Assembly: GCA_000004695.1 (NCBI GenBank)
Contig: CM000151.3
Coordinates: forward strand, 1,312,001-1,376,000
Source: Dictyostelium discoideum
Taxonomy: Eukaryota
Direction of reading: 5' to 3'
DNA length: 64,000 nt
Position 1 is the first letter of the stretch, and the number at the start of each line of letters is the position of its first letter. Shown here one piece after another: positions 483-19,617 of the stretch. Under the pieces are notes generated by a model. The model saw nothing but the letters and a program-made list of their open reading frames with translations. It was not told the origin of the DNA and made no database searches. The translations under genes were made by a program, and so were the position numbers.

Positions 483-3400
483 CTTTTTTTCTTTTTTTGA
501 TATATATATATATATATTATTAAAATAAAAAAATAAAATAAAAGTATTCTAAAATAAAATTTTATTTTAAGTTATTTTTATTGTAAATTTATTTCTGGAA
601 CAACACTTAAAATGTCATACATATCGAAACAGACATTTTTTGAATTAGGAGATAGTTTTGTGCATTTTGAAAATGATGTTGTTGCGACTCATAATATCTC
701 AATGGTTTCATTTACAGCATATTCATTAAACTTTGCTGACTTTTCAAATTTTCAAGGTTTAGGATTTTTCAAAATGACTTTCAATCAAGATTTTATTATT
801 TCATCAATACAAAACTATTCAACCATTAAATCAAATTCCATACAAATAGAGCACAACATAGATATTCCCTATCCATTTTATATACCTATAAACAATTCCA
901 CTCAAAGATTATCAGTATATGCACGTTTTGAAAAACCAAGTTCAATGATAGATCTCTCAAGTTTAGTTTATTCAGATTTATCTCTTTCGGGAGTAGGAGA
1001 CAAGTTCAATTTAAATGGTGAGATTCCGATAATTCCACCGCCTGGTTGCAATTTTATAATAATGCATGGTAATTTTAATGTATTTCCAAATTTTACATAT
1101 TTTACAGGTGGCTTTACTTCTTTTCAGTCAAACTTTTCAATAGCTTTGCCATCCTATTCAGGTAAAAATACAATGTTTTCAATGATAAACAATAACTTGA
1201 TTGGAACAATTGATGAATCTTGGTGCAATGTCAATTTGATAATTTATAATAATAAATTAACAGGGCATGTTTAATTATAAATTAATTCATAATATAAAAA
1301 TAAACAAAATTAACTTTATCTAACTTTTAATTTTTTTTTTACAATAGAAAAATTCCTACATGTTTTACTTGTTATTTTTCAGATCCTGCAGTTTATACTT
1401 CTTTTTCTGGTAACCAATTTACCAACTACAACCAATCAATTGGGTGCCCTGAATTTGCACCAAGATTTGAATTGATGGACATTTCAACCAAAACTTTCCG
1501 TGTAACAGGTATTAATATAGGCTTTACTCCTATGAATTGGTTATTAAACTCAGTTTACTTTCCTTATAATTCCCAAGCTATCTCAACGGGATATGAATAT
1601 GTTGTATCGTACTTATTTTCAATTATTCCTAATCCAAAATACTTTGGTATATTATTTGTGTATCCAGCACCACCACAAACAATATACTTCCCTCTTGGTG
1701 ACCAATTCCCAAATCCAACCGGAATAAAAATAACATCAAATCAATTATTAATTACAGGTGAATTATTTTCAAGTTATATGGGTTACTCAAATCAATCAGT
1801 CCAATTTGAAGAAACATCTACTAATTGTACAATAAAAGATGGTAATTTCTTTAATATAACTTGTGAATTTGTACCATCATCTATTTCTACCTTAACATAC
1901 CCAACAATCATTAAAATTAAAAATGATAATTTAACAAGAAGAGTAATTGTCAATCCGTTAATCGGACAATTAAATCAAATTCCATGTCCTAATAGTTGCG
2001 ATGATATTAGTAATAGTATTTGTGATCTTAATCAAGGTATTTGTATCAGTTGTGTTGATGATTGTGGAATATTCGGTGAATGTAATTTTCAAACCAAAAC
2101 CTGTGATTGTGATTCAAATCATCAAGGTCCAAATTGTTCTATACCATTTATACAATGTCCAACAGGTTTAAATTCTTTAATTTGTAGTAGTGTAGATTAT
2201 AAAATGTGTAACAATCAAACTGGTGTTTGTACTTGCTCTCCAAATCAACAGGGTCAAGATTGCTCATTACCATTTAAACAATGTCCAGTTGGTTTGGATT
2301 CGTTAATATGTAGTGGAGGTAATAACAATTGTAATAATCAAACTGGCATTTGTTATTGTGATAGTAAATTTACAAATGATGATTGTTCAAAACCAAATCA
2401 ATATATATCATCTGTTTCACCATCAAACACAAATGGAGGTGAGGCATCATTTTTTGGTTGGTTTGGAGATATTCATTCAAATCCATCATTATTAATTGGA
2501 AATCAACAATGTCAACCAATTACATATAATTCTTCAATCGAAATTAGATGTATTGCACCACCAGGTAATGGAGTATATGATATTACTTTTAATCAAAATT
2601 ATATCATGTATCAATTAAGAAATGGTTACAGCTATCTTGAAATTTTTAGAAATTGTCCAAACAACTGTACAAATTCAAATCAAGGAAATTGTAATACTTC
2701 AAATGGAGAATGTAATTGTATAAACAATTATTACTCATTCGATTGTAGTTTAAAAAGAAATAATAATACAGGTGGTAACAATGGTGGTAATCCATCAATC
2801 GATCCATCAACAGGTGGGACTAATATTACTGATAATCAAGTAAATTTCCAAATTTATTTTATAAATTTATTTGAAATCGATTTCAACGGTAATATTGTAA
2901 ATCAATATTCATTACAAAGTAATTGGACTCTCAATAAGACTAAAGATTCACAAGAAAATAATATTTATAAATTAACACAAATCATTCAACAATCATGTGA
3001 AATTGTAACATTGATCGAAGAAATCTCAACATCTAAACAATATTCATTTGCAGGCTCAACATTCACATTAGATGCTGGTTCAATTAAATTAACAATTTCA
3101 ATATCAAATTATATTTATAAAAGCAGTTTAAATACATTACAACTTCAATTAATATCATCAGTAGATAACGAAAATGAAGAATCAGATTGTAATATTAAAC
3201 AAGTTTCTACAAATGAAACCAATACATCCTCATTTAAATATATTAAAATTTCAAAAGATAATAGAGTCCTTCAAGGTAGATTCATTAATCAAATACTATC
3301 AGATGGAAGACCAACATATTTGTCAACTGATATTAAAAGTGATGGTAATTCAGTAATTGCAACATTAAATCTACCACATTTTGTAAATCAATCAATTATC

Positions 3401-3601
3401 GATCCAGACTTTTCAGTTTTACTCGAAAATGATTTTAAATCAGAATGTGATACTAAAAACTCTCGTGAATGGTTAATACCAGTTGCTGTTGTAATTCCTG
3501 TTCTCAGTGTTTGTTTTATTGTAGTGATTATCTATATTATTTATAGGAAACAATTTATAGAGAAACCTCTAAAAATAAAATTAGCAGCTTTAGGAAATTA
3601 A
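1..3601 (+). CDS. LRR / EGF-like / IPT-like type I transmembrane protein, tandem paralogue A (exon 1 truncated by window start)
   Basis: Five-exon model, approx exons <1..69, 137..226, 301..435, 572..1264, 1348..3601; all intron phases are 2 and consistent. Exon 4 is ORF 612..1274 (plant-type LxxNxLxGxIP leucine-rich repeats, e.g. FNLNGEIPIIPP and NKLTG|KIP across the intron). Exon 5 is ORF 1472..3601 (Cys-rich EGF-like modules CDCDSNHQGPNC, IPT/TIG-like GWFGDIHSNPSLLIGNQQCQPI..IRCIAPPGNG, C-terminal TM WLIPVAVVIPVLSVCFIVVIIYIIY plus a short tail). About 90% nt identity to copies B and C, including introns. Intron 4 donor is GC (ACAGG|GCATGT) where B and C have GT. Confidence 0.7.
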
Positions 3602-3689
3602 AAATAAATAAATAAATAAATATTAATTGGTATATATATATATTTTGATCTATTCTTTTTTTATCTATAAATCTTTATTGTGATACAAA

Positions 3690-3960
3690 ATCCTTTACAG
3701 GAGGGTTGTTTCAATGATTGAATAAATGATAAATCAGCAACGATCAATATAATCGATTAAAAGAAATTGAGTATTATTTTGGAGTTATAATTAATTTGTA
3801 ATTAATTTTTCATTTATAACCATGAGAATTTCTTTTCACTTAATAAGTAATTGGTAAATAAAACAAGTAGTACCGAATAAACAAATTGAAGAGATTAAAT
3901 TATATTCATAAAATAATTTGATAATTGATTATTACCACTACTATTACAATTTGAAATTAC
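3690..3960 (-). pseudogene. Truncated, stop-containing duplicate of the C-terminal end of the 7TM giant gene (paralogous to 14640..14900)
   Basis: About 80% nt identity to 14640..14900, which on the minus strand encodes ...FQSIIFIVADSSFIQSLQQPSYKGF of the giant gene. Here the equivalent codons read F*SIILIVADLSFIQSLKQPSCKGF (CAA to TAA stop). Similarity ends near 3960-4020. It sits about 90 bp after the stop of copy A, as the intact gene sits 80 bp after copy C. Confidence 0.6.
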
Positions 3961-4473
3961 TAATTCTGAAATTCTATTTGGCTGTAATTGTAAATTTTGA
4001 ATCATTAATTATTATATTTGAATGATTTTTTGAAAGAATACACATAAAACTATAAATCCTCTTTATATATATATAAATAATAAACTTCTTTTATTCGTCT
4101 CTCTGTTGCTAAATCGTCTTCGTTTAAGAATAATTAACTAATATATAAACATGAATAATATTATAAACAGTGTACAACAATTCATTCTTTATTATTATAA
4201 TTAATCAACACAATATAAACCTCTTTAATGATTCCCAAAGACGTCACATTTTATTTTTTTTTTTTATTAAATCACTTAAAAAAAAAAAAAAAAAAAAAAG
4301 ATAACAGAGATGGTGTAATTTGGAAAAAAAAAAAAAAAAAATTGAAAAAAAAAAAAAATTAAAAAAAAAAAACAAATATGAATAAATTAAAAATGATTTG
4401 GATTTTATTTGTTAGCTCTCGTTGGATTAAAAATTGTCCAAATATTAAAAATAAAAATAATTATTCTAGAATG

Positions 4474-4849
4474 TTCATCTAATTCTGTATATTAAATACG
4501 TTGTATCTACAACTGAAAATATTTTAATACCATCAATAATTAATGGTATTTGAGATAACCTATCTTTACTATTTATTGGATTTAAATCATTTAAAATTAA
4601 AATGTTTTTTTTTACATTATTTAATTTTTTTAATATAGTTTTATGATATTTTACGATTTGATCAATTGTTGGATAACATTTTATAAAATGTAAATATAAT
4701 AATAAATCTTTTAAATTTAAATTTATATTATATCTCTTAACTTTGTTTGGAGATAAAAAAAACTATTTTTATCAATCCAAAATAAGATTTAAACAATCTT
4801 TCATTAGAAAAAAAAAAATTTCTACATTATATTCATTTAATAATGACAT
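4474..4849 (-). CDS. Candidate small gene: a stop-free 94-codon reading frame, possibly preceded by an ATG mini-exon
   Basis: Minus-strand frame with no stop from about 4756 to 4474 (..LSPNKVKRYNINLNLKDLLLYLHFIKCYPTIDQIVKYHKTILKKLNNVKKNILILNDLNPINSKDRLSQIPLIIDGIKIFSVVDTTYLIYRIR*), which is unlikely by chance in 80% AT DNA. A possible ATG exon (MSLLNEYN, 4849..4826) joins in frame through a weak, short GTAGAA..ATAG intron of about 63 nt. No canonical start inside the long frame, so it is absent from the ORF track. Confidence 0.25.
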
Positions 4850-5793
4850 TTTCGAAATATATGTAAAAAAAAAAAAGTTAGTGTAATTTTAAAAAAAGTT
4901 GGTGTAATTTAAATTTTTTTTTTTTATTTTTATTTTTTTTTTTTTTACTAAAATGCCCAAAGCATCCTCTTGGTAACCAGCCAAAGGATTCTTATTTAAA
5001 ATCAGATTTAATTAAAAATTTAAATTTAATTGCTGATGATATTATCACCAATTTAAATTTGAATTTTCAACAAAAAAGAACTAAAACAGCTATCAAAAAG
5101 AATTAAAAAAATTAATTCTGATCTTAAAAGCCATACAATATTTGGGATGTCAGATTTCAATTGAAAAATGTTTGAAGTTTTCAATTAACAATATCCTGAA
5201 AAAAAAAAAAGAAAATTGATTTAATAGGATGGGTTGAATCCAACTAAATGTTAAACATAAATAAATAAAAAAATAATCCAAAAATAAATTTTTTATTTTT
5301 CTCATTTTTTTTTTTTTTTTTTCAGATTACGCCATCTCTATTTGGTATTTTTTTTTTTTTTATTTTTTTTTTTTTTTTCAGATTACGCCATCTCTAATAT
5401 TATTTTTATTTTAACTGTGGAGGATATTTTTTTTTAATAAAAAAAAAACCTATAGTTGGTTTTCAATATAGTATGTTGTATAAAACTTTAGTATCATTTG
5501 TGTGCAAAAAACTGGTTCATAATTAAAACAATTTTCTAACACCTCAAATCTGATTTTTTTTTTTTATGATGCGCGTTGCCAAAAAAAAAAAAAAAAAAAA
5601 GATTCACAAGTCAGAAAATAATAAAAAAAAAAAGATATTTTTTCACAGTGGATATTTTTTTTTTTTGATATTTTTTCCTTATTTTTTTTTATTTTTTTTT
5701 TTTTTTCAAAAAAATATCTAATTAAACTGTGAATTGGTTTTATTGATTTTTTTTTTTTTATTTTTTTATTTATTTTGTTTTTTTAGATAATAA

Positions 5794-6213
5794 ATGGTTA
5801 ATTTTTTTATTTGTTTTTTGATGTGTTCAATGTTTTTTTGTTATATTAATTGCATTGAACCTCCAGTAGATGAATATAATTGTTTCTTTGATTTTATTAC
5901 AAAAATAAACCTTTTTTCATTCTATCCAAATACCAATGCTACTCACTATAATTTTTGCACAAATAATATTGTATGTGATGGAGTTACTGGAACAATAAAA
6001 GAGTATGTATTTTATTTTATTTTATTTTATTTTATTTTATTTTATTTTATTTTATTTTATTTTATTTTATTTTATTTTTTTTTTTTTTTTAACTAACTTT
6101 ATTAAATTTATTTTAGTATTACTATATTAAACACCTTAACTAGTGGATATAATAACCAATCAATATTACCAACAGACTTAGCGTGTCTTCCTAATTTTAA
6201 TAGAATGTAGGTA

Positions 6214-6262
<49 letters not shown>

Positions 6263-9200
6263 CCTAATAATTATACAGATATTTCCAAAATCTAGTTATA
6301 TCAAAAGAACTTGTATTTTATCAATTCCCACAAAAAATTAATGAAGTAACATATGATTATGGAGACTATCCTTGCAGTCCGATTGATCAAGAGCTACCTG
6401 GAACATTTGCCTTGTGAGTATTGAAATATTTTTTTTTTTTTGACTACTAAAATTATTTATTAAAAAAAAAAAAAAATAATATTCTAAAATAATATTTTAT
6501 TTTTAGTTATTTTTATTGTAAAACTATTTCGGGAACAACAATAAAAATATCACACATAATGAAACCTTCAATTTTTTATTTTAGAAATAGTTTTGTACAT
6601 TTCGAAAATGATGTTGTTGCAACTCATAATATCTCAACGATTTCATTTTCAGTGTTTTCATTAAGCTTTGCAGATTTTTCTAATTTTATAAGTTTGGGAA
6701 TTTTCCAAATAACTTTCAATCAAGATTTTGTTATTTCATCAATACAAAACTTTTCAACCATTAAATCAAATTCCATCTCAATAGATCACAACCAAAATAA
6801 TTTCTATCCATTTTATGTACCAATAAATAACTCCACTCAATCATTATCAATAGCGGCACTATTTGAAAAACCAAATTCAATGATAGATCTTTCAAGTTAT
6901 GGTTTTAAACATTTACTTTTATCGAAAGTTGGAGAAAAGTTTAATTTAAATGGTGAGATTCCGATAATTCCACCCACTAGTAGCAATTTTTTAATAAACT
7001 TAGGCAATTTTAATGTATTTCCAAACTTAACAAAATTTTCTGGGACTTTTAGTTCATCTGGGTCTAACTTTTCAATTGCTTTACCATCACATTCAGGTAA
7101 AAGTACAATGGTGTCTTTAGTAAATAATAACTTTTTTGGAACAATTGATGAATCTTGGTGCAATGCCAATTTGATAGTCACCGGTAATAAATTAACAGGG
7201 TATGTTTAAATTAATAAAAAAATAATCCATATAAATCTAAATATATCTAACTTTATAATTTTTTTTTTTTATTAATAGAAAAATACCTACATGTTTTACC
7301 TGTTATTTTTCAGATATCTCATTTTTTAATTATTTTTCTGGTAACCAATTTACAAACTACAACCAATCAATTGGGTGTTCTGAATTTGCACCAAGATTTG
7401 AATTGTTGGACATTTCAACCAATACTTTCCGTGTAACAGGTATTAATATAGGGTTTAACCCAAGATATTGGTTATTAAACTCAGTTGACTTTCTAAATAG
7501 TTACCAAGCTATCTCAACGGGATATGAATATGTTGTATCGTATATATTTGCAAGAATACCTAATCCAAAATACTTTAATGTTACATTTGTTCATCCAGCA
7601 CCATCACAAACAATATACTTCCCTCTTGGTGATCAATTACCAAATCCAACCGGTATTAAAATAACATCAAATCAATTAATAATTACAGGTGAATTATTTT
7701 CAAGTTATATGGGTTACTCAAATCAATCAGTCCAATTTGAAGAATCATCTACTAATTGTACAATAAAAGATGGTAATTTCTTTAATATAACTTGTGAATT
7801 TGTACCATCATCTATTTCTACCTTAACATACCCAACAATCATTAAAATTAAAAATGATAATTTAATAAGAAGAGTAATTGTCAATCCATTAATTGGACAA
7901 TTAAATCAAATTCCATGTCCCAATAATTGTGATGATCTTATTAATAAAATCTGTGATCTTTCTAAGGGTATCTGTGTCTGGAAAATTTGTAAAAATGATT
8001 GTGGAATTTTTGGCGAATGTAATGATCAAACTGGAGAGTGTGATTGTGATTCAAATCATCAAGGTCCAAACTGTTCTATACCATTTATACAATGCCCAAC
8101 AGGTTCAAATTCTTTAATTTGTAGTAGTGTAGATTATAATATGTGTAACAATCAAACTGGTATTTGTACTTGCTCAACAAATCAACAAGGTCAAAATTGT
8201 TCATTACCATTTAAACAATGTCCAGTTGGTTTGGATTCCTTAATATGCAGTGGAGGTAATAGCAATTGTAATAATCAAACAGGAGTTTGTTATTGTGATT
8301 CAAATCATCAAGGTTCAACTTGTTCAAAACCATTTAAACAATGTCCAACGGGTCTAAATTCTTTAATTTGTAGTAGTGTAGATAATAATATGTGTAATAA
8401 TCAAACTGGTGTTTGTACATGTTCTCCTAGTCAACAAGGTCAAGATTGCTCATTACCATTTAAGCAATGCCCAGTTGGTTTGGATTCCTTAATATGCAGT
8501 GGAGGTAATAACAATTGTAAAAATCAAACAGGTATTTGTTATTGTGATTCAAATCATCAAGACTCTGATTGCTCATTACCATTTAAACAATGTCCAGTTG
8601 GTTTGGATTCTTTAATTTGTAGTGGGGGTGATAACAACTGTAATAATCAAACTGGTGTTTGTACATGTTCTCCAAATCATCAAGACTCTGATTGCTCATT
8701 ACCATTTAAACAATGTCCAGTTGGTTTAGATTCTTTAATTTGTAGTGGGGGTAATAACAATTGTAATAATCAAACTGGAATTTGTTATTGTGATAGTAAA
8801 TTTACAAATGATAACTGCTCAAAACCAAATCAATATATATCATCTGTTTCACCATCGACCACAAATGGAGGTGAAGCATCATTTTTTGGTTGGTTTGGAG
8901 ATATTCATTCAAATCCATCATTATTAATTGGAGCTCAACAATGTCAACCAATTACATATAATTCTTCAATCGAAATTAGATGTATTGCACCACCAGGTAA
9001 TGGAGTATATGATATTACTTTTAATCAAAATGATATCATGTATCAATTAAGAAATGGTTACAGCTATCTTGAAATTTTTAGAAATTGCCCAAACAATTGT
9101 ACAAATTCAAATCAAGGAAATTGCAATACTTCAAATGGAGAATGTAATTGTATAAACAATTATTACTCATTCGATTGTAGTTTAAAAAGAAATAATAATA

Positions 9201-10042
9201 CAGGTGGTAACAATGGTGGTAATCCATCAATCGATCCATCAACAGGTGGAACTAATATTACTGATAATCAAGTAAATTTCCAAATTTATTTTAAAAATTT
9301 ATTTGAAATCGATTTCAACGGTAATATTGTAAATCAATATTCATTACAAAGTAATTGGACTCTCAATAAAACTAAAGATTCACAAGAAAATAATATTTAT
9401 AAATTGACTCAAATCATTCAACAATCATGTGAAATTGTAACATTGATCGAAGAAATCTCAACATATAAACAATATTCATTTGCAGGCTCAACATTCACAT
9501 TAGATGCTGGTTCAATTAAATTAACAATTTCAATATCAAATTATATTTATAAAAGCAGTTTAAATACATTACAACTTCAATTAATATCATCAGTAGATAA
9601 CGAAAATGAAGAATCAGATTGTAATATTAAACAAGTTTCAACAAATGAAACCAATACATCCTCATTTAAATATATTAAAATTTCAAAAGATAATAGAGTC
9701 CTTCAAGGTAGATTCATTAATCAAATACTATCAGATGGAAGACCAACATATTTGTCAACTGATATTAAAAGTGATGGTAATTCAGTAATTGCAACATTAA
9801 ATCTACCACATTTTGTAAATCAATCAATTATCGATCCAGACTTTTCAGTTTTACTCGAAACTGATTTTAAATCAGAATGTGACAATAAAAACTCTCGTAA
9901 ATGGTTAATACCAGTTGCTGTGACAGTCCCAATCGTTGGTCTTTGTTGTATTGGAGTGATTGTATATTTTTTATATAGAAAACATTTTATTGAGATACCT
10001 CTAAAAGTTAAATTAGAAAGTATTGGAAATAAAATAAAATAA
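5794..10042 (+). CDS. LRR / EGF-like / IPT-like type I transmembrane protein, tandem paralogue B (expanded EGF-module array, about 1296 aa)
   Basis: Exons approx 5794..6002, 6117..6206, 6279..6413, 6507..7199, 7279..10042. Donors GTATGT/GTAGGT/GTGAGT/GTATGT, acceptors after T-rich ..AG. Exon lengths 209/90/135/693 are identical to copy C. Exon 1 encodes a signal peptide (MVNFFICFLMCSMFFCYINC) plus a Cys-containing N-terminus. The last exon has six 41-aa C-x-C EGF-like modules versus two in A and C, then IPT-like, an extra EGF, a roughly 300-aa membrane-proximal domain and a TM (WLIPVAVTVPIVGLCCIGVIVYFLY). The ORF track called 7403 with a TTG start and the frame is open upstream of it, which supports splicing from exon 4. 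Confidence 0.75.
8060..8830 (+). repeat. Coding tandem array of about 123-bp (41-aa) EGF-like module units, six units in copy B
   Basis: Alternating units CSxPFxQCPTGxNSLICSSVDxNMCNNQTGxCTCSxxQQGQx and CSLPFKQCPVGLDSLICSGGxxNCxNQTGxCYCDSNHQxSx, each beginning CS[ILK]PF[IK]QCP, repeated head to tail. Copies A and C have one pair. Confidence 0.8.
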
Positions 10043-10779
10043 TATTAAATAAAATAAAAATAAATAAACAAATAAAATGATAAATTGTCACTATTATTTT
10101 ATTTTTTATATTATTTGTAAATATTATTTAAAAGATTAAGTTTTTATTTTTTTTATTTTTTTTTATTTTTTTTTTAGGTTTAAAAAATTAATTTTTTTTA
10201 TAATAATAATTTGGTCACTAAATGAAATTTCCAAACCTACCTGAAAAGAATATTCTAAACCAAAAAGAAAATTCTTATAATGTTAATCAAAACATTCAAA
10301 TCTGGCAAAAAAAAAAAAAAAAAAATGGAAAAAAAAATGAAAAAATAGCAAAGATTAAATTTTAATTTTTTTTTTTTAACAAAATTAATTATTAGACGTA
10401 AAGATGACGACTGAACATTTGATTTTTTTTTTAAAAAAGATCTTTGAGGCTACCCAAAAAAAAATGAAGAGGTAAAGTAGATATTAAAAAAAAAAAAATC
10501 CTAAAAAAAAAAAAATATCCAAAAATAAAATCAAAAATGTTTATTTCCCAATAAATATCTCAAATCATTTGTTCTTTTTTTTCAAAAATGAGATTACCAT
10601 ATCATTTCAAATAAAACCAATTTTATTATCAAAATAAATTATGGCAGTTATTAAAAAAATAAATGGATATGTTTTTTTACTTACCGAAGATTTTTTTTTA
10701 AATTGATAGTAAAAAAAAAAAAATCTTAATTTTTTTAACATTTTCCATTTTCCATTTTTTTTATAATAATTAGATTTTA

Positions 10780-13700
10780 ATGGGGAAATTTATTATTTGT
10801 TTTTTGTTGTGTTCAATGTTTTTTTGTTATGTTAATTGCATTGAACCTCCAATAGATGAATATAATTGTTTCCTAAATTTTATTACAAAAATAAACCTTT
10901 TTTCATTATTTCCAAAAACCAATGCCACTCACTATGATTTTTGCACAGGATATATAAAGTGTGATGGAGTTACTGGAACAATAAAAGAGTATGTATTTTA
11001 TTATTTTATTTTTTTTATATTATTTTAACTAACTTTATTAAATTTTTTATTAAAGTGTAACTATTTTAAACACTTTAAAAAGTGGATATAATAACCAATC
11101 GATTTTAGCAACAGACTTAGTGTGCCTTCCTAATTTAAATAGAATGTATGTGTATTTAAAACAATGAAATAAAATAAAATTGCTATTAAACATGTTTATT
11201 ATACTTTTATAGAAATCTCCAAAATCTAAATATATCTAAACAGCTTGTTTTTTATGAATTCCCACAAAAAATTGGTCAAGTAACATATAATTATGGAGAC
11301 TATGAGTGTAGTCCAATTGATCAAAAACTACCTGAAATTCCATCTTTGTAAGTTTGGCAAAATCCTTTTTTTTTCTTTTTTTTAAAAATTAAAATTATGG
11401 TATTCTAAAATAATATTTTATTTTTAGTTATTTTTATTGTAAATCCATTTCTGGAACAACATTTAAAATCTCATACATAACAAAACAGACAATCTTTTAT
11501 TTTGGAGATAGTTTTGTACATTTCGAAAATGATGTTCTTGAGACTCATAATATCTCAATGGTTTCATTTACAGCATATTCGTTAAACTTTGCTGACTTTT
11601 CAAATTTTAAAGGTTTGGGATTTTTCAAGATGACTTTCAATCAAGATTTTATTATTTCATCAATACAAAACTATTCAACCATTAAATCAAATTCCATACA
11701 AATTGAGCACGACACAGATTTTCCCTATCCATTTTATATACCAATAAATAATTTCACTCAAAGATTATCAGTATATGCACGTTTTGAAAAACCAAGTTCA
11801 ATGATAGATCTCTCAAGTTTAGTTTATTCGGATTTATCTCTTTCGGGAGTAGGCGACAAGTTTAATTTTAATGGTGAGATTCCGATAATTCCACCACCTG
11901 GTTGCAATTTTATAATAATGCATGGTAATTTTAATGTATTTCCAAATTTTACATATTTTACAGGTGGCTTTACTTCTTTTCAGTCAAACTTTTCAATATC
12001 CTTGCCATCCTATTCAGGTAAAAATACAATGTTTTCAATGATAAACAATAACTTGATTGGAACAATTGATGAATCTTGGTGCAATGTCAATTTGATAATT
12101 TATAATAATAAATTAACAGGGTATGTTTAATTAAAAATTAAAATAAAAATTAATTATATTAAAAAATAAATAAATATAAAAATAAACAAATTTAACTTTA
12201 TCTAACTTTTTTTTAATAATAGAAAAATACCTACATGTTTTACTTGTTATTTTTCGGATCCTGCGGTTTATACTTCTTTTTCTGGTAACCAATTTACAAA
12301 CTACAACCAATCAATTGGGTGTTCTGAATTTGCACCAAGATTTGAATTGATGGATTTTTCAACTAAAACTTTCCGTGTAACAGGTATTAATATAGGCTTT
12401 ACTCCTATGAATTGGTTATTAAACTCAGTTTACTTTCCTTATAGTTTCCAAGATATCTCAACGGGATATGAATATGTTGTGTCGTATTTATTTTCAATAA
12501 TACCTAATCCAAAATACTTTAATGTTACATTTGCTCATCCAGAACCATCACAAACAATATACTTCCCTCTTGGTGATCAATTACCAAATCCAACCGGTAT
12601 TAAAATAACATCAAATCAATTATTAATTACAGGTGAATTATTTTCAAGTTATATGGGTTACTCAAATCAATCAGTCCAATTTGAAGAATCATCTACTAAT
12701 TGTACAATAAAATATGGTAATTTCTTTAATATAACTTGTGAATTTGTACCATCATCTATTTCTACCTTAACATACCCAACAATCATTAAACTTAAAAATG
12801 ATAATTTAATAAGAAGAGTTATTGTCAATCCATTAATTGGACAACTAAATCAAATTCCATGTCCAAATAATTGCGATGATCTTAATAATAGTATTTGTGA
12901 TCTTAATCAAGGTATTTGTATCAGTTGTGTAGATGATTGTGGAATATTCGGTGAATGTAATTTTCGAACCAGAACCTGTGATTGTGATTCAAATCATCAA
13001 GGTCCAAATTGTTCTATACCATTTATACAATGTCCAACAGGTTTAAATTCTTTAATTTGTAGTAGTGTAGATTATAATATGTGTAACAATAAAACTGGTG
13101 TTTGTACTTGTTCTCCAAATCAACAAGGTCAAGATTGTTCATTACCATTTAAACAATGCCCAGTTGGTTTGTATTCGTTAATATGCAGTGGAGGTAATAA
13201 CAATTGTAACAATCAAACAGGTATTTGTTATTGTGATAGTAAATTTATAAATGATGATTGTTCAAAACCAAATCAATATATATCATCTGTTTCACCATCA
13301 ACCTCAAATGGAGGTGAAGCATCATTTTTTGGTTGGTTTGGAGATATTCATTCAAATCCATCATTATTAATTGGAAATCAACAATGTCAACCAATTACAT
13401 ATAATTCTTCAATCGAAATTAGATGTATTGCACCACCAGGTAATGGAGTATATGATATTACTTTTAATCAAAATGATATCATGTATCAATTAAGAAATGG
13501 TTACAGCTATCTTGAAATTTTTAAAAAATGTCCCAACAATTGTACAAATTCAAATCAAGGAAATTGTAATACTTCAAATGGAGAATGTAATTGTATAAAC
13601 AATTATTACTCATTCGATTGTAGTTTAAAAAGAAATAATAATACAGGTGGTAACAATGGTGGTAATCCATCAATCGATCCATCAACAGGTGGGACTAATA

Positions 13701-14485
13701 TTACTGATAATCAAGTAAATTTCCAAATTTATTTTAAAAATTTATTTGAAATCGATTTCAACGGTAATATTGTAAATCAATATTCATTACAAAGTAATTG
13801 GACTCTCAATAAGACTAAAGATTCACAAGAAAATAATATTTATAAATTAACACAAATCATTGAAATATCATGTGAAATTGTAACATTGATCGAAGAAATC
13901 TCAACATCTAAACAATATTCATTTGCAGGCTCAACATTCACATTAGATGCTGGTTCAATTAAATTAACAATTTCAATATCAAATTATATTTATAAAAGCA
14001 GTTTAAATACATTACAACTTCAATTAATATCATCAGTAGATAACGAAAATGAAGAATCAGATTGTAATATTAAACAAGTTTCAACAAATGAAACCAATAC
14101 ATCCTCATTTAAATATATTAAAATTTCAAAAGATAATAGAGTCCTTCAAGGTAGATTCATTAATCAAATACTATCAGATGGAAGACCAACATATTTGTCA
14201 ACTGATATTAAAAGTGATGGTAATTCAGTAATTGCAACATTAAATCTACCACATTTTGTAAATCAATCAATTATCGATCCAGACTTTTCAGTTTTACTTG
14301 AAAATGATTTTAAATCTGAGTGTGATACTTACAACTCTCGTAAATGGTTAATACCAGTTGCTGTGGCAGTTCCAATCTTTGGTGTTTGTTGTATTGGAGT
14401 GATTATATATTATTTTTATAGAAAACATTTTATTGAAATACCACTAAAAATAAAATTAGGAATTATTGGGAATAAAATAAAATAA
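10780..14485 (+). CDS. LRR / EGF-like / IPT-like type I transmembrane protein, tandem paralogue C (about 1129 aa)
   Basis: Exons approx 10780..10988, 11056..11145, 11213..11347, 11428..12120, 12223..14485. Same architecture and phases as copy B. Signal peptide MGKFIICFLLCSMFFCYVNC. TM WLIPVAVAVPIFGVCCIGVIIYYFY. Stop at 14483..14485. Confidence 0.75.

Positions 14486-14565: not shown

Positions 14566-19617
<5,052 letters not shown>

Follow-up and report, generated by a model that had tools for sequence, protein, structure and literature searches.

The window analysed here is a stretch of 64,000 nucleotides from Dictyostelium discoideum (GenBank assembly GCA_000004695.1, contig CM000151.3, positions 1,312,001 to 1,376,000 of the forward strand), and all positions given below are counted from its first letter. 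Three tandem ComC-family genes of AX4 chromosome 2 lie in it, referred to as copies A, B and C (DDB_G0272336, DDB_G0272364 and DDB_G0272366, respectively). The gene model of copy B is based on P0001, which is 99% identical to copy B and maps to exons 5794-6000, 6118-6204, 6280-6411, 6508-7200 and 7280-9961. The 3' end is provisional, as the gene would either read through to 10042 or be spliced at the intron annotated at 9962-10178. The main features of the gene, other than its EGF-like array, are as follows.

5794..10042, + strand: copy B (DDB_G0272364), gene of a ComC-family type I membrane protein (P0001 mapping, Pfam)
7279..10042, + strand: last, large exon of copy B (donor GT at 7200-7201, acceptor AG at 7277-7278, in frame; P0001 and P0095 mapping)
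8834..9064, + strand: IPT/TIG-like beta-sandwich directly 3' of the array (AF2 pLDDT 89-96; Foldseek matches to plexin, Met and EBF IPT domains, rmsd 2-3.5 A)
9902..9976, + strand: transmembrane helix (WLIPVAVTVPIVGLCCIGVIVYFLY), then a basic tail (translation)

The product of copy B consists of a signal peptide, LRR_ComC, two beta-sandwiches, the EGF array, the IPT-like domain, an EGF domain, the ComC supersandwich and a transmembrane helix, in that order. In Pfam the family is described by LRR_ComC (PF24141), Beta-sand_ComC_1st and Beta-sand_ComC_2nd (PF24142 and PF24143) and ComC_SSD (PF22933), for which copy B scores 230.8, 36.2, 78.9 and 247.1 bits, respectively. Copy B is a member of the ComC family, with all four family domains above the curated cut-offs and in the family order. 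Like the rest of the family, it carries EGF-like domains between the family domains, one transmembrane helix and a short tail. The founding member, comC, is a developmental cell-communication gene; unlike comC itself, copy B is an uncharacterised paralogue within the chromosome 2 tandem cluster. A total of 93 relatives were retrieved, nearly all of them from Dictyostelium genome annotations, plus one Logan-assembly sequence. A knockout of DDB_G0272364 was equal to the wild type in a dedifferentiation assay, the sole assay reported (PMC7190356).

The EGF-like array of copy B

The first-pass annotation gave the last-exon ORFs as 879 aa in B compared to 709 aa in A and 712 aa in C. This is confirmed if the ORFs are measured from their first TTG (position 7403 in B); the true last exon begins 41 codons 5' of that TTG, which leaves the length differences between the copies unaffected. 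In the A/B/C protein alignment, B has a single block insertion and the identity elsewhere is 91-93%. The proposal of four extra EGF-like modules holds as well, with six modules of 40-42 aa in B (8093-8833) and two each in A and C. Together the extra modules make up 165 aa (41, 42, 41 and 41) of the 167-170 extra residues. The earlier statement that they are the whole difference is true for nearly all of the length but not for the remainder, which comprises an insertion of 2 aa (WK) and, in the comparison with A, a tail of 3 aa (KIK). The array and its DNA repeat are composed as follows.

2156..2401, + strand: two-module array of copy A (A1 and A2)
7988..8092, + strand: 'EGF0', a non-repeated EGF-like domain preceding the array (Tandem Repeats Finder array start at 8018; lag-249 identity of 80-90% from 8005)
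8018..8794, + strand: DNA tandem repeat of 3.1 x 249 bp (86% matches) or 6.3 x 123 bp (77% matches) (Tandem Repeats Finder, lag analysis)
8093..8218, + strand: module B1, 42 aa, type X with six Cys
8219..8341, + strand: module B2, 41 aa, Y head with an EGF0-type tail, one of the four extra modules
8342..8467, + strand: module B3, 42 aa, type X, one of the four extra modules
8468..8590, + strand: module B4, 41 aa, type Y, one of the four extra modules
8550..8727, + strand: most recently homogenised stretch (exact repeat 8550-8604 = 8673-8727; lag-123 identity of 95-98% along some 100 bp)
8591..8713, + strand: module B5, 41 aa, mosaic, one of the four extra modules
8714..8833, + strand: module B6, 40 aa, final Y module with a distinct tail (DSKFTND), corresponding to A2 and C2
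13031..13276, + strand: two-module array of copy C (C1 and C2)

Cysteines are found in 6/6 modules of B at positions 1, 10, 17/18, 24/25, 26/27 and 35/36, with the spacing C-x(n)-C-x(n)-C-x(n)-C-x-C-x8-C. Pfam EGF_2 (PF07974) recognises six stretches in the 247-aa array, so that every module is matched (59.7 bits compared to a cut-off of 22.1, E = 3.4e-16). EGF_laminin also matches the array, and the match to EGF_TEN is weaker. The PROSITE PS00022 signature, C-x-C-x5-G-x2-C, is present in B1-B3, and its Gly is replaced by Asp in B4 and B5 and by Asn in B6. Calcium-binding EGF domains have the consensus D/N-x-D/N-E/Q immediately before the first Cys. This acidic consensus is absent from the B modules, each of which is preceded by (S/K)(L/K/I)PF(K/I)Q and starts with C-P-(T/V)-G. 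Judged by their motifs, the array modules appear to be EGF-like domains of the non-calcium-binding kind.

Searched by sequence against all PDB chains, the array gave no match at E <= 1. The best Foldseek matches were Notch1 EGF4-7, EGF8-12 and EGF20-24 (E = 1e-7 to 1e-5, large rmsd). In the AF2 model of 7895-9082, built on a 32-sequence alignment, only the IPT-like domain is confident; since the array has a pLDDT of 45-66, the model was set aside for array geometry and for the 1-3, 2-4 and 5-6 disulphides of the EGF fold. As in the metazoan EGF stalks of Notch, tenascin/teneurin and NELL, the six-Cys modules of about 40 aa stand head to tail in B, and a kinship to the Notch, tenascin and NELL stalks would be one of fold level only. 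Unlike in those stalks, the modules of B have no calcium-binding consensus, and the signature Gly is replaced in B4-B6.

The alternating 41-aa unit of the first-pass annotation is recovered as X and Y modules of 40-42 aa; their order, X-Y-X-Y-Y'-Y, is however not a strict alternation. B1 shares 93-94% identity with A1 and C1 and 95% with the first module of the ACTFIR allele, and B3 is 87% identical to B1 and 91-92% to A1 and C1. B4 is 89% identical to B2, and B6 is 93% identical to A2. The remaining module, B5, is a mosaic in the alignment, with a head matching B6 (Y), a core equal to B3 (X) and a tail equal to B4. Its nearest relatives belong to another strain, namely module 5 of L002 (95%) and module 3 of L002_12223 (93%). 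The tail of B2 is 87-89% identical to EGF0 tails compared to 85% to B4, and the 3' half of EGF0 lies inside the DNA repeat; on these grounds the tail of this internal module would derive from EGF0.

The span expected for the array, 8060-8830, was about right (8018-8794 by Tandem Repeats Finder, with scores of 831 and 1104; 8093-8833 by module boundaries). A head-to-tail repeat with a period of 123 bp is indeed detected. The natural repeat unit is the 249-bp X-Y module pair, of which B has three; this unit is favoured because matches amount to 86% at 249 bp compared to 77% at 123 bp, in agreement with the lag analysis. A fast-changing 123-bp minisatellite is not supported in copy B. Nor is the near-perfect DNA repetition of the first-pass annotation borne out. 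The modules are 11-30% diverged, identity within B reaches 87-89% for the best pairs, and exact repeats in the array extend to at most 55 bp.

Age and variation among strains and relatives

The strain comparison comprised five other assemblies besides AX4. The B-type gene has six modules in AX4, six in a near-identical lab-lineage assembly, six in a cryptic sister species and four in one wild D. discoideum, these being few and diverged strains. The earlier claim of length variation among paralogues can thus be extended to strains, as the syntenic B-type gene of the D. discoideum isolate GCA_054859385.1 has four modules compared to six in AX4. The reading of these as alleles of one gene is based on synteny and on LRR-exon identity (85% to B compared to 67% to A and C), in a cluster where orthology is blurred by gene conversion. 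Between AX4 and the four-module isolate, divergence amounts to several percent in the neighbouring gene as well. A cluster that is hyper-polymorphic relative to the genome was considered and rejected, since this neighbour, a non-ComC gene, itself differs by 4-8% between the two strains. A MAFFT global alignment of the AX4 and ACTFIR arrays places a gap of 246-249 bp at the 5' end; owing to the 249-bp periodicity, the position of the indel is ambiguous and no exact breakpoint is claimed for the four-module allele.

Across the relatives, the number of modules ranges from 0 to 9. In D. citrinum and D. firmibasis there are multi-module arrays of 4-5 and 5-9 modules, respectively, in which CPTG and CPVG alternate, and two modules are the rule for A/C-type genes in almost all genomes examined. 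In one isolate, GCA_054859235.1, a different cluster gene carries a triplicated X module whose copies are 98.4% identical at the DNA level, the only near-perfect, recent expansion. The gene number of the tandem cluster is variable too. Literature searches on comC with lagC or tgrC1 and on the gene ID gave no account of the module variation, and neither 'EGF' nor 'comC' occurs in the wild-genome and tgr paper (PMC12745789).

The first-pass annotation had also linked the variation to rapidly evolving surface proteins, a picture which is not supported for the array of copy B. Between like modules of B, dS is 0.24-0.76. For the B module pairs, it is 0.38-0.74 with a dN/dS of about 0.2; these dS estimates are noisy, with no more than 22-49 synonymous sites behind them. 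Positive selection on the modules is not indicated, as like-module pairs give a dN/dS of about 0.1-0.35. Each B module is 91-95% identical to some module of another strain or paralogue and at most 89% identical to any within its own array. The order Xt-Yy-Xt-Yy-Yt-Yf is also found in the B-type gene of GCA_054859205.1, the cryptic sister species, and in a different (334-type) paralogue of GCA_054859355.1. Because this six-module order is common, position by position, to the sister species and to a different paralogue type, the array is considered old. The order would predate the split between AX4 and the cryptic sister species, and the comparisons point to a stable domain array kept by purifying selection rather than a hypervariable minisatellite.

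Changes in array length

Overall, the data are probably best explained by an old six-module array whose length has been shifted by unequal exchange and which would serve as a stalk. Out-of-register homologous recombination, as unequal crossing-over or gene conversion within or between the tandem paralogues, would add or remove whole modules in frame. The exchanges may take place at the conserved core CN[N/D]QTGxCxC and at the module junctions SLPFKQ-CPVGLDS. Unequal crossing-over, already suggested by the first-pass annotation, is the best mechanism given the mosaic B5, the EGF0-derived tail of B2 and the reciprocal zero-module genes. A B2 tail nearest to the EGF0 tail is the product expected from an exchange between EGF0 and a final module. 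The reciprocal product is found in D. citrinum P0019 and P0020, where an EGF0 head is fused to a final-module tail with zero modules. In copy B the change would have happened long ago, and the family is probably still undergoing the same process, as indicated by the four-module B allele, the range of 0-9 modules in relatives and the fresh triplication in one isolate.

The direction of change is less evident. It is almost an even call whether the multi-module array is ancestral to the subfamily, with A, C and the four-module B allele as deletion products of unequal exchange; B would then have no 'extra' modules, and A and C would be short by four. Such a contraction is consistent with the multi-module alternating arrays of D. 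citrinum and D. firmibasis, with the six-module order in two paralogue types and the sister species, and with the dS of the B module pairs, which is at least as high as the largest A-B gene divergence (0.32). Moreover, X-Yf would be restored without a scar if the B1/B2 junction recombined with the B5/B6 junction. On the other hand, the two-module state of A/C-type genes in nearly every genome argues for the opposite polarity, the B2 tail shows that internal modules can come from a two-module gene, and polarity is erasable by gene conversion copying arrays between paralogues.

Somewhat unlikely is a block transfer, by which B received all or most of the array through non-allelic gene conversion, e.g. 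from a DDB_G0272334-type gene. The 334-type gene of GCA_054859355.1 would be a suitable source, having the same six-module order and a module 5 that is 95% identical to B5, and evidence for conversion is strong over the 3' halves of the cluster genes. However, the B-type genes of AX4 and GCA_054859205.1 both pair the array with a B-type LRR exon, so a transfer would predate their split, and donor and recipient are indistinguishable. Such a transfer is in any case compatible with length change by unequal exchange and does not exclude it.

AT-rich Dictyostelium repeats are generally difficult to assemble (PMC12745789), but a mis-assembled repeat number in AX4 is very improbable. The stretch 7990-8900 is found base for base in the independent assembly GCA_054883475.1, a near-identical lab-lineage assembly (99.885% identity with the window across 20 kb), and modules that are at most 89% identical are unambiguous to assemble. 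An unrelated insert in B, e.g. a mobile element or a low-complexity expansion, has next to no likelihood, since alignment identifies the extra length as repeated modules: 4/4 extra units have the six-Cys EGF pattern and a Pfam EGF_2 match, and they align with A1, A2, C1 and C2 at 73-92% DNA identity.

A putative stalk and comparison with known systems

Divergence is unevenly distributed along the genes. Between A and B, dS falls from 0.32 in the LRR exon to 0.20 5' of the array and 0.09 3' of it. The C-terminal part is 88-98% identical within species compared to 75-83% between species, and the LRR part is 29-69% identical within species. The array might form a glycosylated, disulphide-stiffened stalk that spaces a fast-diverging head (LRR and beta-sandwiches) from a membrane-proximal base (IPT, EGF, supersandwich and transmembrane helix), the latter possibly held nearly identical among paralogues by gene conversion. 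The four extra modules would bring four more N-x-T sequons and, at the usual size of an EGF module, an ectodomain longer by about 10 nm. Module number may thereby alter the reach or specificity of the ectodomain, as the first-pass annotation suggested.

A bolder and quite doubtful proposal is that the chromosome 2 cluster encodes polymorphic recognition receptors with a 'variable head, adjustable stalk, constant base', the EGF array serving as a recombination joint for head shuffling. If so, the LRR heads would diversify, for a ligand that might sit on another amoeba or on prey, stalk length could tune intermembrane distance or head reach in module steps, gene conversion would keep the signalling base uniform, and new heads would be shuffled onto this constant base through the array. 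If module number sets the projection of the LRR head, the cluster would offer a natural stalk-length series, with 0, 2, 3, 4 or 6 modules in proteins that are nearly identical elsewhere. As Dictyostelium is genetically tractable, this series could be used to test the role of ectodomain length in cell-cell or cell-prey recognition.

EGF repeat-number variation among paralogues is in itself an expected and well-understood phenomenon. The cluster would be a compact case in which the head diversifies, the stalk changes in module number and the base evolves in concert, and these three processes in one ComC-family cluster parallel the better-known tgr allorecognition locus. According to PMC12745789, the Dictyostelium tgr locus recombines and duplicates. 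Like the tgr genes and the FLO adhesins of yeast, the ComC cluster combines in-frame gain and loss of coding repeats, chimeric units, variation among paralogues and strains, and a tandem location. Unlike classic coding minisatellites, with their near-identical and highly mutable repeats, copy B has repeats that appear old (86% identical) and stable across lineages.

Gene cluster and domain architecture

A protein search placed the window on Dictyostelium discoideum AX4 chromosome 2 and identified copy B as DDB_G0272364 (99% identity to P0001, its AX4 model of 1293 aa) and copies A and C as DDB_G0272336 and DDB_G0272366. These are the only three ComC-family copies within the window, which has a G+C content of approximately 22–30%, while a fourth paralogue, DDB_G0272334, lies upstream beyond the window edge. 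The LRR_ComC domain, two ComC beta-sandwiches, EGF_2 and the ComC supersandwich domain all score above the curated Pfam cut-offs, and all four genes encode ComC-family proteins. Read from its translation, copy B has a signal-like hydrophobic stretch at the N-terminus and a single transmembrane helix followed by a short basic tail. Within the repeat array, modules were delimited by cysteine-pattern parsing.

Features of the cluster and of copy B (window coordinates)
612-14485: genes A, B and C together
2156-2401: two-module array of copy A
7988-8092: EGF0, the non-repeated EGF before the array
8093-8218: module B1
8219-8341: module B2
8342-8467: module B3
8468-8590: module B4
8591-8713: module B5
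8714-8833: module B6
9902-9976: transmembrane helix of copy B
13031-13276: two-module array of copy C

Counted from the first TTG, the ORFs of A, B and C are 709, 879 and 712 aa long, as reported in the first-pass annotation. The true last exon of B begins at 7279 (donor GT 7200-7201, acceptor AG 7277-7278), 41 codons upstream of this TTG. The last exons of A and C likewise begin 41 codons earlier, which leaves the length differences among the copies unchanged.

Several gene models of the region look aberrant. In the AX4 model of DDB_G0272364, a splice joins 9961 to 10179 (region 9962-10241); it falls within the predicted transmembrane helix and leaves the protein with an unrelated C-terminal sequence. 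Since the read-through ORF to 10042 (…VYFLYRKHFIEIPLKVKLESIGNKIK) agrees with newer annotations and other species, this terminal intron looks mis-annotated. The C-terminus of the DDB_G0272334 model is likewise aberrant. Within the LRR exon, the AX4 models of A (1071-1109) and C (11927-11965) omit 39 nt in frame, losing NFNVFPNFTYFTG; since this stretch is retained in the uninterrupted reading frame and in newer annotation, the mini-intron is probably spurious. Adjoining the cluster is a minus-strand ORF (14566-19617) of 1683 aa, with many predicted membrane-spanning stretches near the C-terminus. It also contains long poly-Asn runs, which are encoded by (ATT)61 at 16099-16282 and (TAT)26 at 16815-16893. 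No Pfam family was found for it at E <= 0.1, and its position is conserved in all five other assemblies.

The module array of copy B

A, B and C align with 91–93% identity and one block insertion, in B. Copy B has six EGF-like modules and A and C two each, so that the four extra modules claimed earlier are indeed present. They do not make up the whole length difference: they account for 165 aa of the 170 (A) or 167 (C), the remainder being a WK insertion and a KIK tail. All modules carry six cysteines at fixed positions, Pfam EGF_2 matches six separate stretches of the array and Tandem Repeats Finder calls an array at 8018-8794. In addition, 7990-8900 is found exactly, base for base, in the independent assembly GCA_054883475.1 (99.885% identity to the window across 20 kb), probably the AX2-214 genome of PMC12745789. 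Together, these results show that the array is real. Both the EGF-like nature of the modules and ComC-family membership were borne out by the tests that were run.

The repeat had also been described as a 123-bp minisatellite, almost perfect at the DNA level. However, the match is 77% for a 123-bp period and 86% for a 249-bp period. The best module pairs within B share 87–89% DNA identity (B1-B3 87, B2-B4 89, B4-B5 87), all other comparisons 68–82%. No exact repeat is longer than 55 bp (8550-8604 = 8673-8727), and identity of 95–98% at lag 123 is confined to the ~100 bp surrounding it. On unit identity, the minisatellite class fails for B. Two alternating module types, X and Y, do exist, but the order is X-Y-X-Y-Y'-Yf (Y' being the mosaic B5 and Yf the final module), and strict alternation of a 41-aa unit breaks down. 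At the DNA level the repeat divides most naturally into 249-bp X-Y pairs, and it begins inside EGF0.

Between module pairs of B, dS is 0.38 (B1B2 vs B3B4) and 0.65–0.74 (vs B5B6) and dN 0.08–0.18, with dN/dS around 0.2, all from few sites. At the gene level, copies A and B differ by a dS of 0.32 across the LRR exon, 0.20 in the sequence immediately 5' of the array and 0.09 beyond its 3' end. The module-pair values equal or exceed these, which makes the intra-array duplications no younger than the divergence of B from A/C. Modules were also compared with those of four other assemblies, whose loci were obtained by exact protein look-ups. Each B module has its closest relative in another strain or paralogue (91–95%), closer than any within its own array. 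The six-module order of AX4 B (Xt-Yy-Xt-Yy-Yt-Yf, by head and tail subtypes) recurs in the B-type gene of GCA_054859205.1 (annotated 'D. cf. discoideum'), whose LRR exon shares 82% identity with B vs 70–71% with A and C, and in a DDB_G0272334-type gene of GCA_054859355.1. As this order is shared across lineages and paralogue types, the array of copy B is an old domain run kept by selection.

Variation in module number and probable unequal exchange

The proposed PCR check for length alleles was done in silico on the public assemblies of PRJNA1300491 (PMC12745789), and length variation among strains was confirmed. GCA_054859385.1 carries a B-type gene whose LRR exon shares 85% identity with B and 67% with A and C; its array consists of four modules, Xt-Yy-Xt-Yf, one X-Y pair short of the six in AX4. 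The genes there run in the order RNase T2, A-type, B-type, C-type, large minus-strand gene, in agreement with the window-covered portion in AX4 and with the whole order in the AX4-like assembly L004. Across the subfamily, module counts range from 0 to 9. At the syntenic loci of five other assemblies (L001–L005), the interval from RNase T2 to the large minus-strand gene contains one to three ComC-family genes.

Module and gene numbers
DDB_G0272334: 3 modules
DDB_G0272334 relatives in another D. discoideum isolate: 4 and 6 modules
D. firmibasis paralogues: 5, 7 and 9 modules
D. citrinum paralogues: 0-5 modules
L004 and GCA_054859385.1: 3 ComC-family genes in the interval
GCA_054859235.1: 2 ComC-family genes in the interval
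GCA_054859355.1: 1 ComC-family gene in the interval

The LRR types of the cluster genes also differ among strains. Protein P0094 (L003 10001-18749; ACTFIY_009553, annotated with 2407 aa) is a fusion of two neighbouring ComC-family genes, a six-module B-type gene and, after it, a four-module A/C-type gene.

The likely mechanism is out-of-register homologous exchange, in line with the unequal crossing-over suggested initially, and three observations speak for it. First, B5 is a mosaic: its first ~66 nt are the B6 head with three differences, its core is that of B3 and its last ~40 nt are the B4 tail. Second, B2 has a tail that resembles that of EGF0 (87–89%) more closely than the tail of any other module. 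If EGF0 and the final Y module recombined out of register inside their shared CN(N/D)QTGxCxC core, B2 would receive an EGF0-type tail and EGF0-X-Yf would become EGF0-X-Yy-X-Yf, the four-module architecture of the other isolate. Third, D. citrinum P0019 and P0020 join the EGF0 head straight to the final-module tail with zero modules between, as predicted for the reciprocal product; P0018 has no repeat modules and also misses EGF0, and all three resemble deletion products of this exchange. Even module numbers (0, 2, 4, 6) fit exchange at lag 249, while odd numbers and Y-head/X-tail chimeras (B5, DDB_G0272334 module 2) fit lag 123.

As to polarity, A and C could equally have been shortened from a longer array by a scarless reverse exchange. 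Gene conversion could also have copied arrays between paralogues. Out-of-register exchange may still be acting: in GCA_054859235.1, the X module is triplicated in the gene adjoining the large minus-strand gene (L005 12245-12616) with 98.4% DNA identity among copies. Unlike the old array of AX4 B, this is a recent, minisatellite-like expansion in single 123-bp steps.

Structural context and putative function

The domain directly after the array is confidently predicted as an IPT/TIG-like sandwich (pLDDT 89–96), with structural matches to the IPT domains of plexin, Met and EBF. The array itself is modelled poorly (pLDDT 45–66), its best structural matches being Notch1 EGF runs; a sequence search for a solved relative found none, and the calcium-binding (cbEGF) consensus is absent from the modules. 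Every repeat module of A, B and C carries an N-x-T sequon in a conserved CNNQTG core (NQT, or NKT in C1, where the Q-to-K change leaves it intact), which gives B four sequons more than either neighbour.

From the IPT domain to the transmembrane helix, paralogues share 88–98% identity within species vs 75–83% between species (A, B, C and P0001-P0020), while the LRR part shares 29–69% among paralogues of one species. The fall in dS between A and B along the gene, from the LRR exon to the part 3' of the array, belongs to the same pattern. It indicates that the base evolves in concert while the head diversifies, and the EGF array sits between these two regimes. The array is best read as an adjustable-length stalk joining a variable ligand-binding head to a constant base. 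From general EGF module dimensions, four extra modules would add an estimated ~10 nm.

Functional data were found from one experiment only, a dedifferentiation screen in which knockout of DDB_G0272364 left PCNA induction at wild type (PMC7190356). The focussed part of that screen covered genes induced early in dedifferentiation; the criterion for DDB_G0272364 is not given there. A literature search found no paper describing module-number change in this cluster. That the cluster as a whole is a family of head-stalk-base recognition receptors, with the EGF array doubling as a recombination joint, seems rather unlikely. Changes in the number of coding modules by unequal recombination are, in themselves, a familiar process in tandem surface-protein gene clusters.
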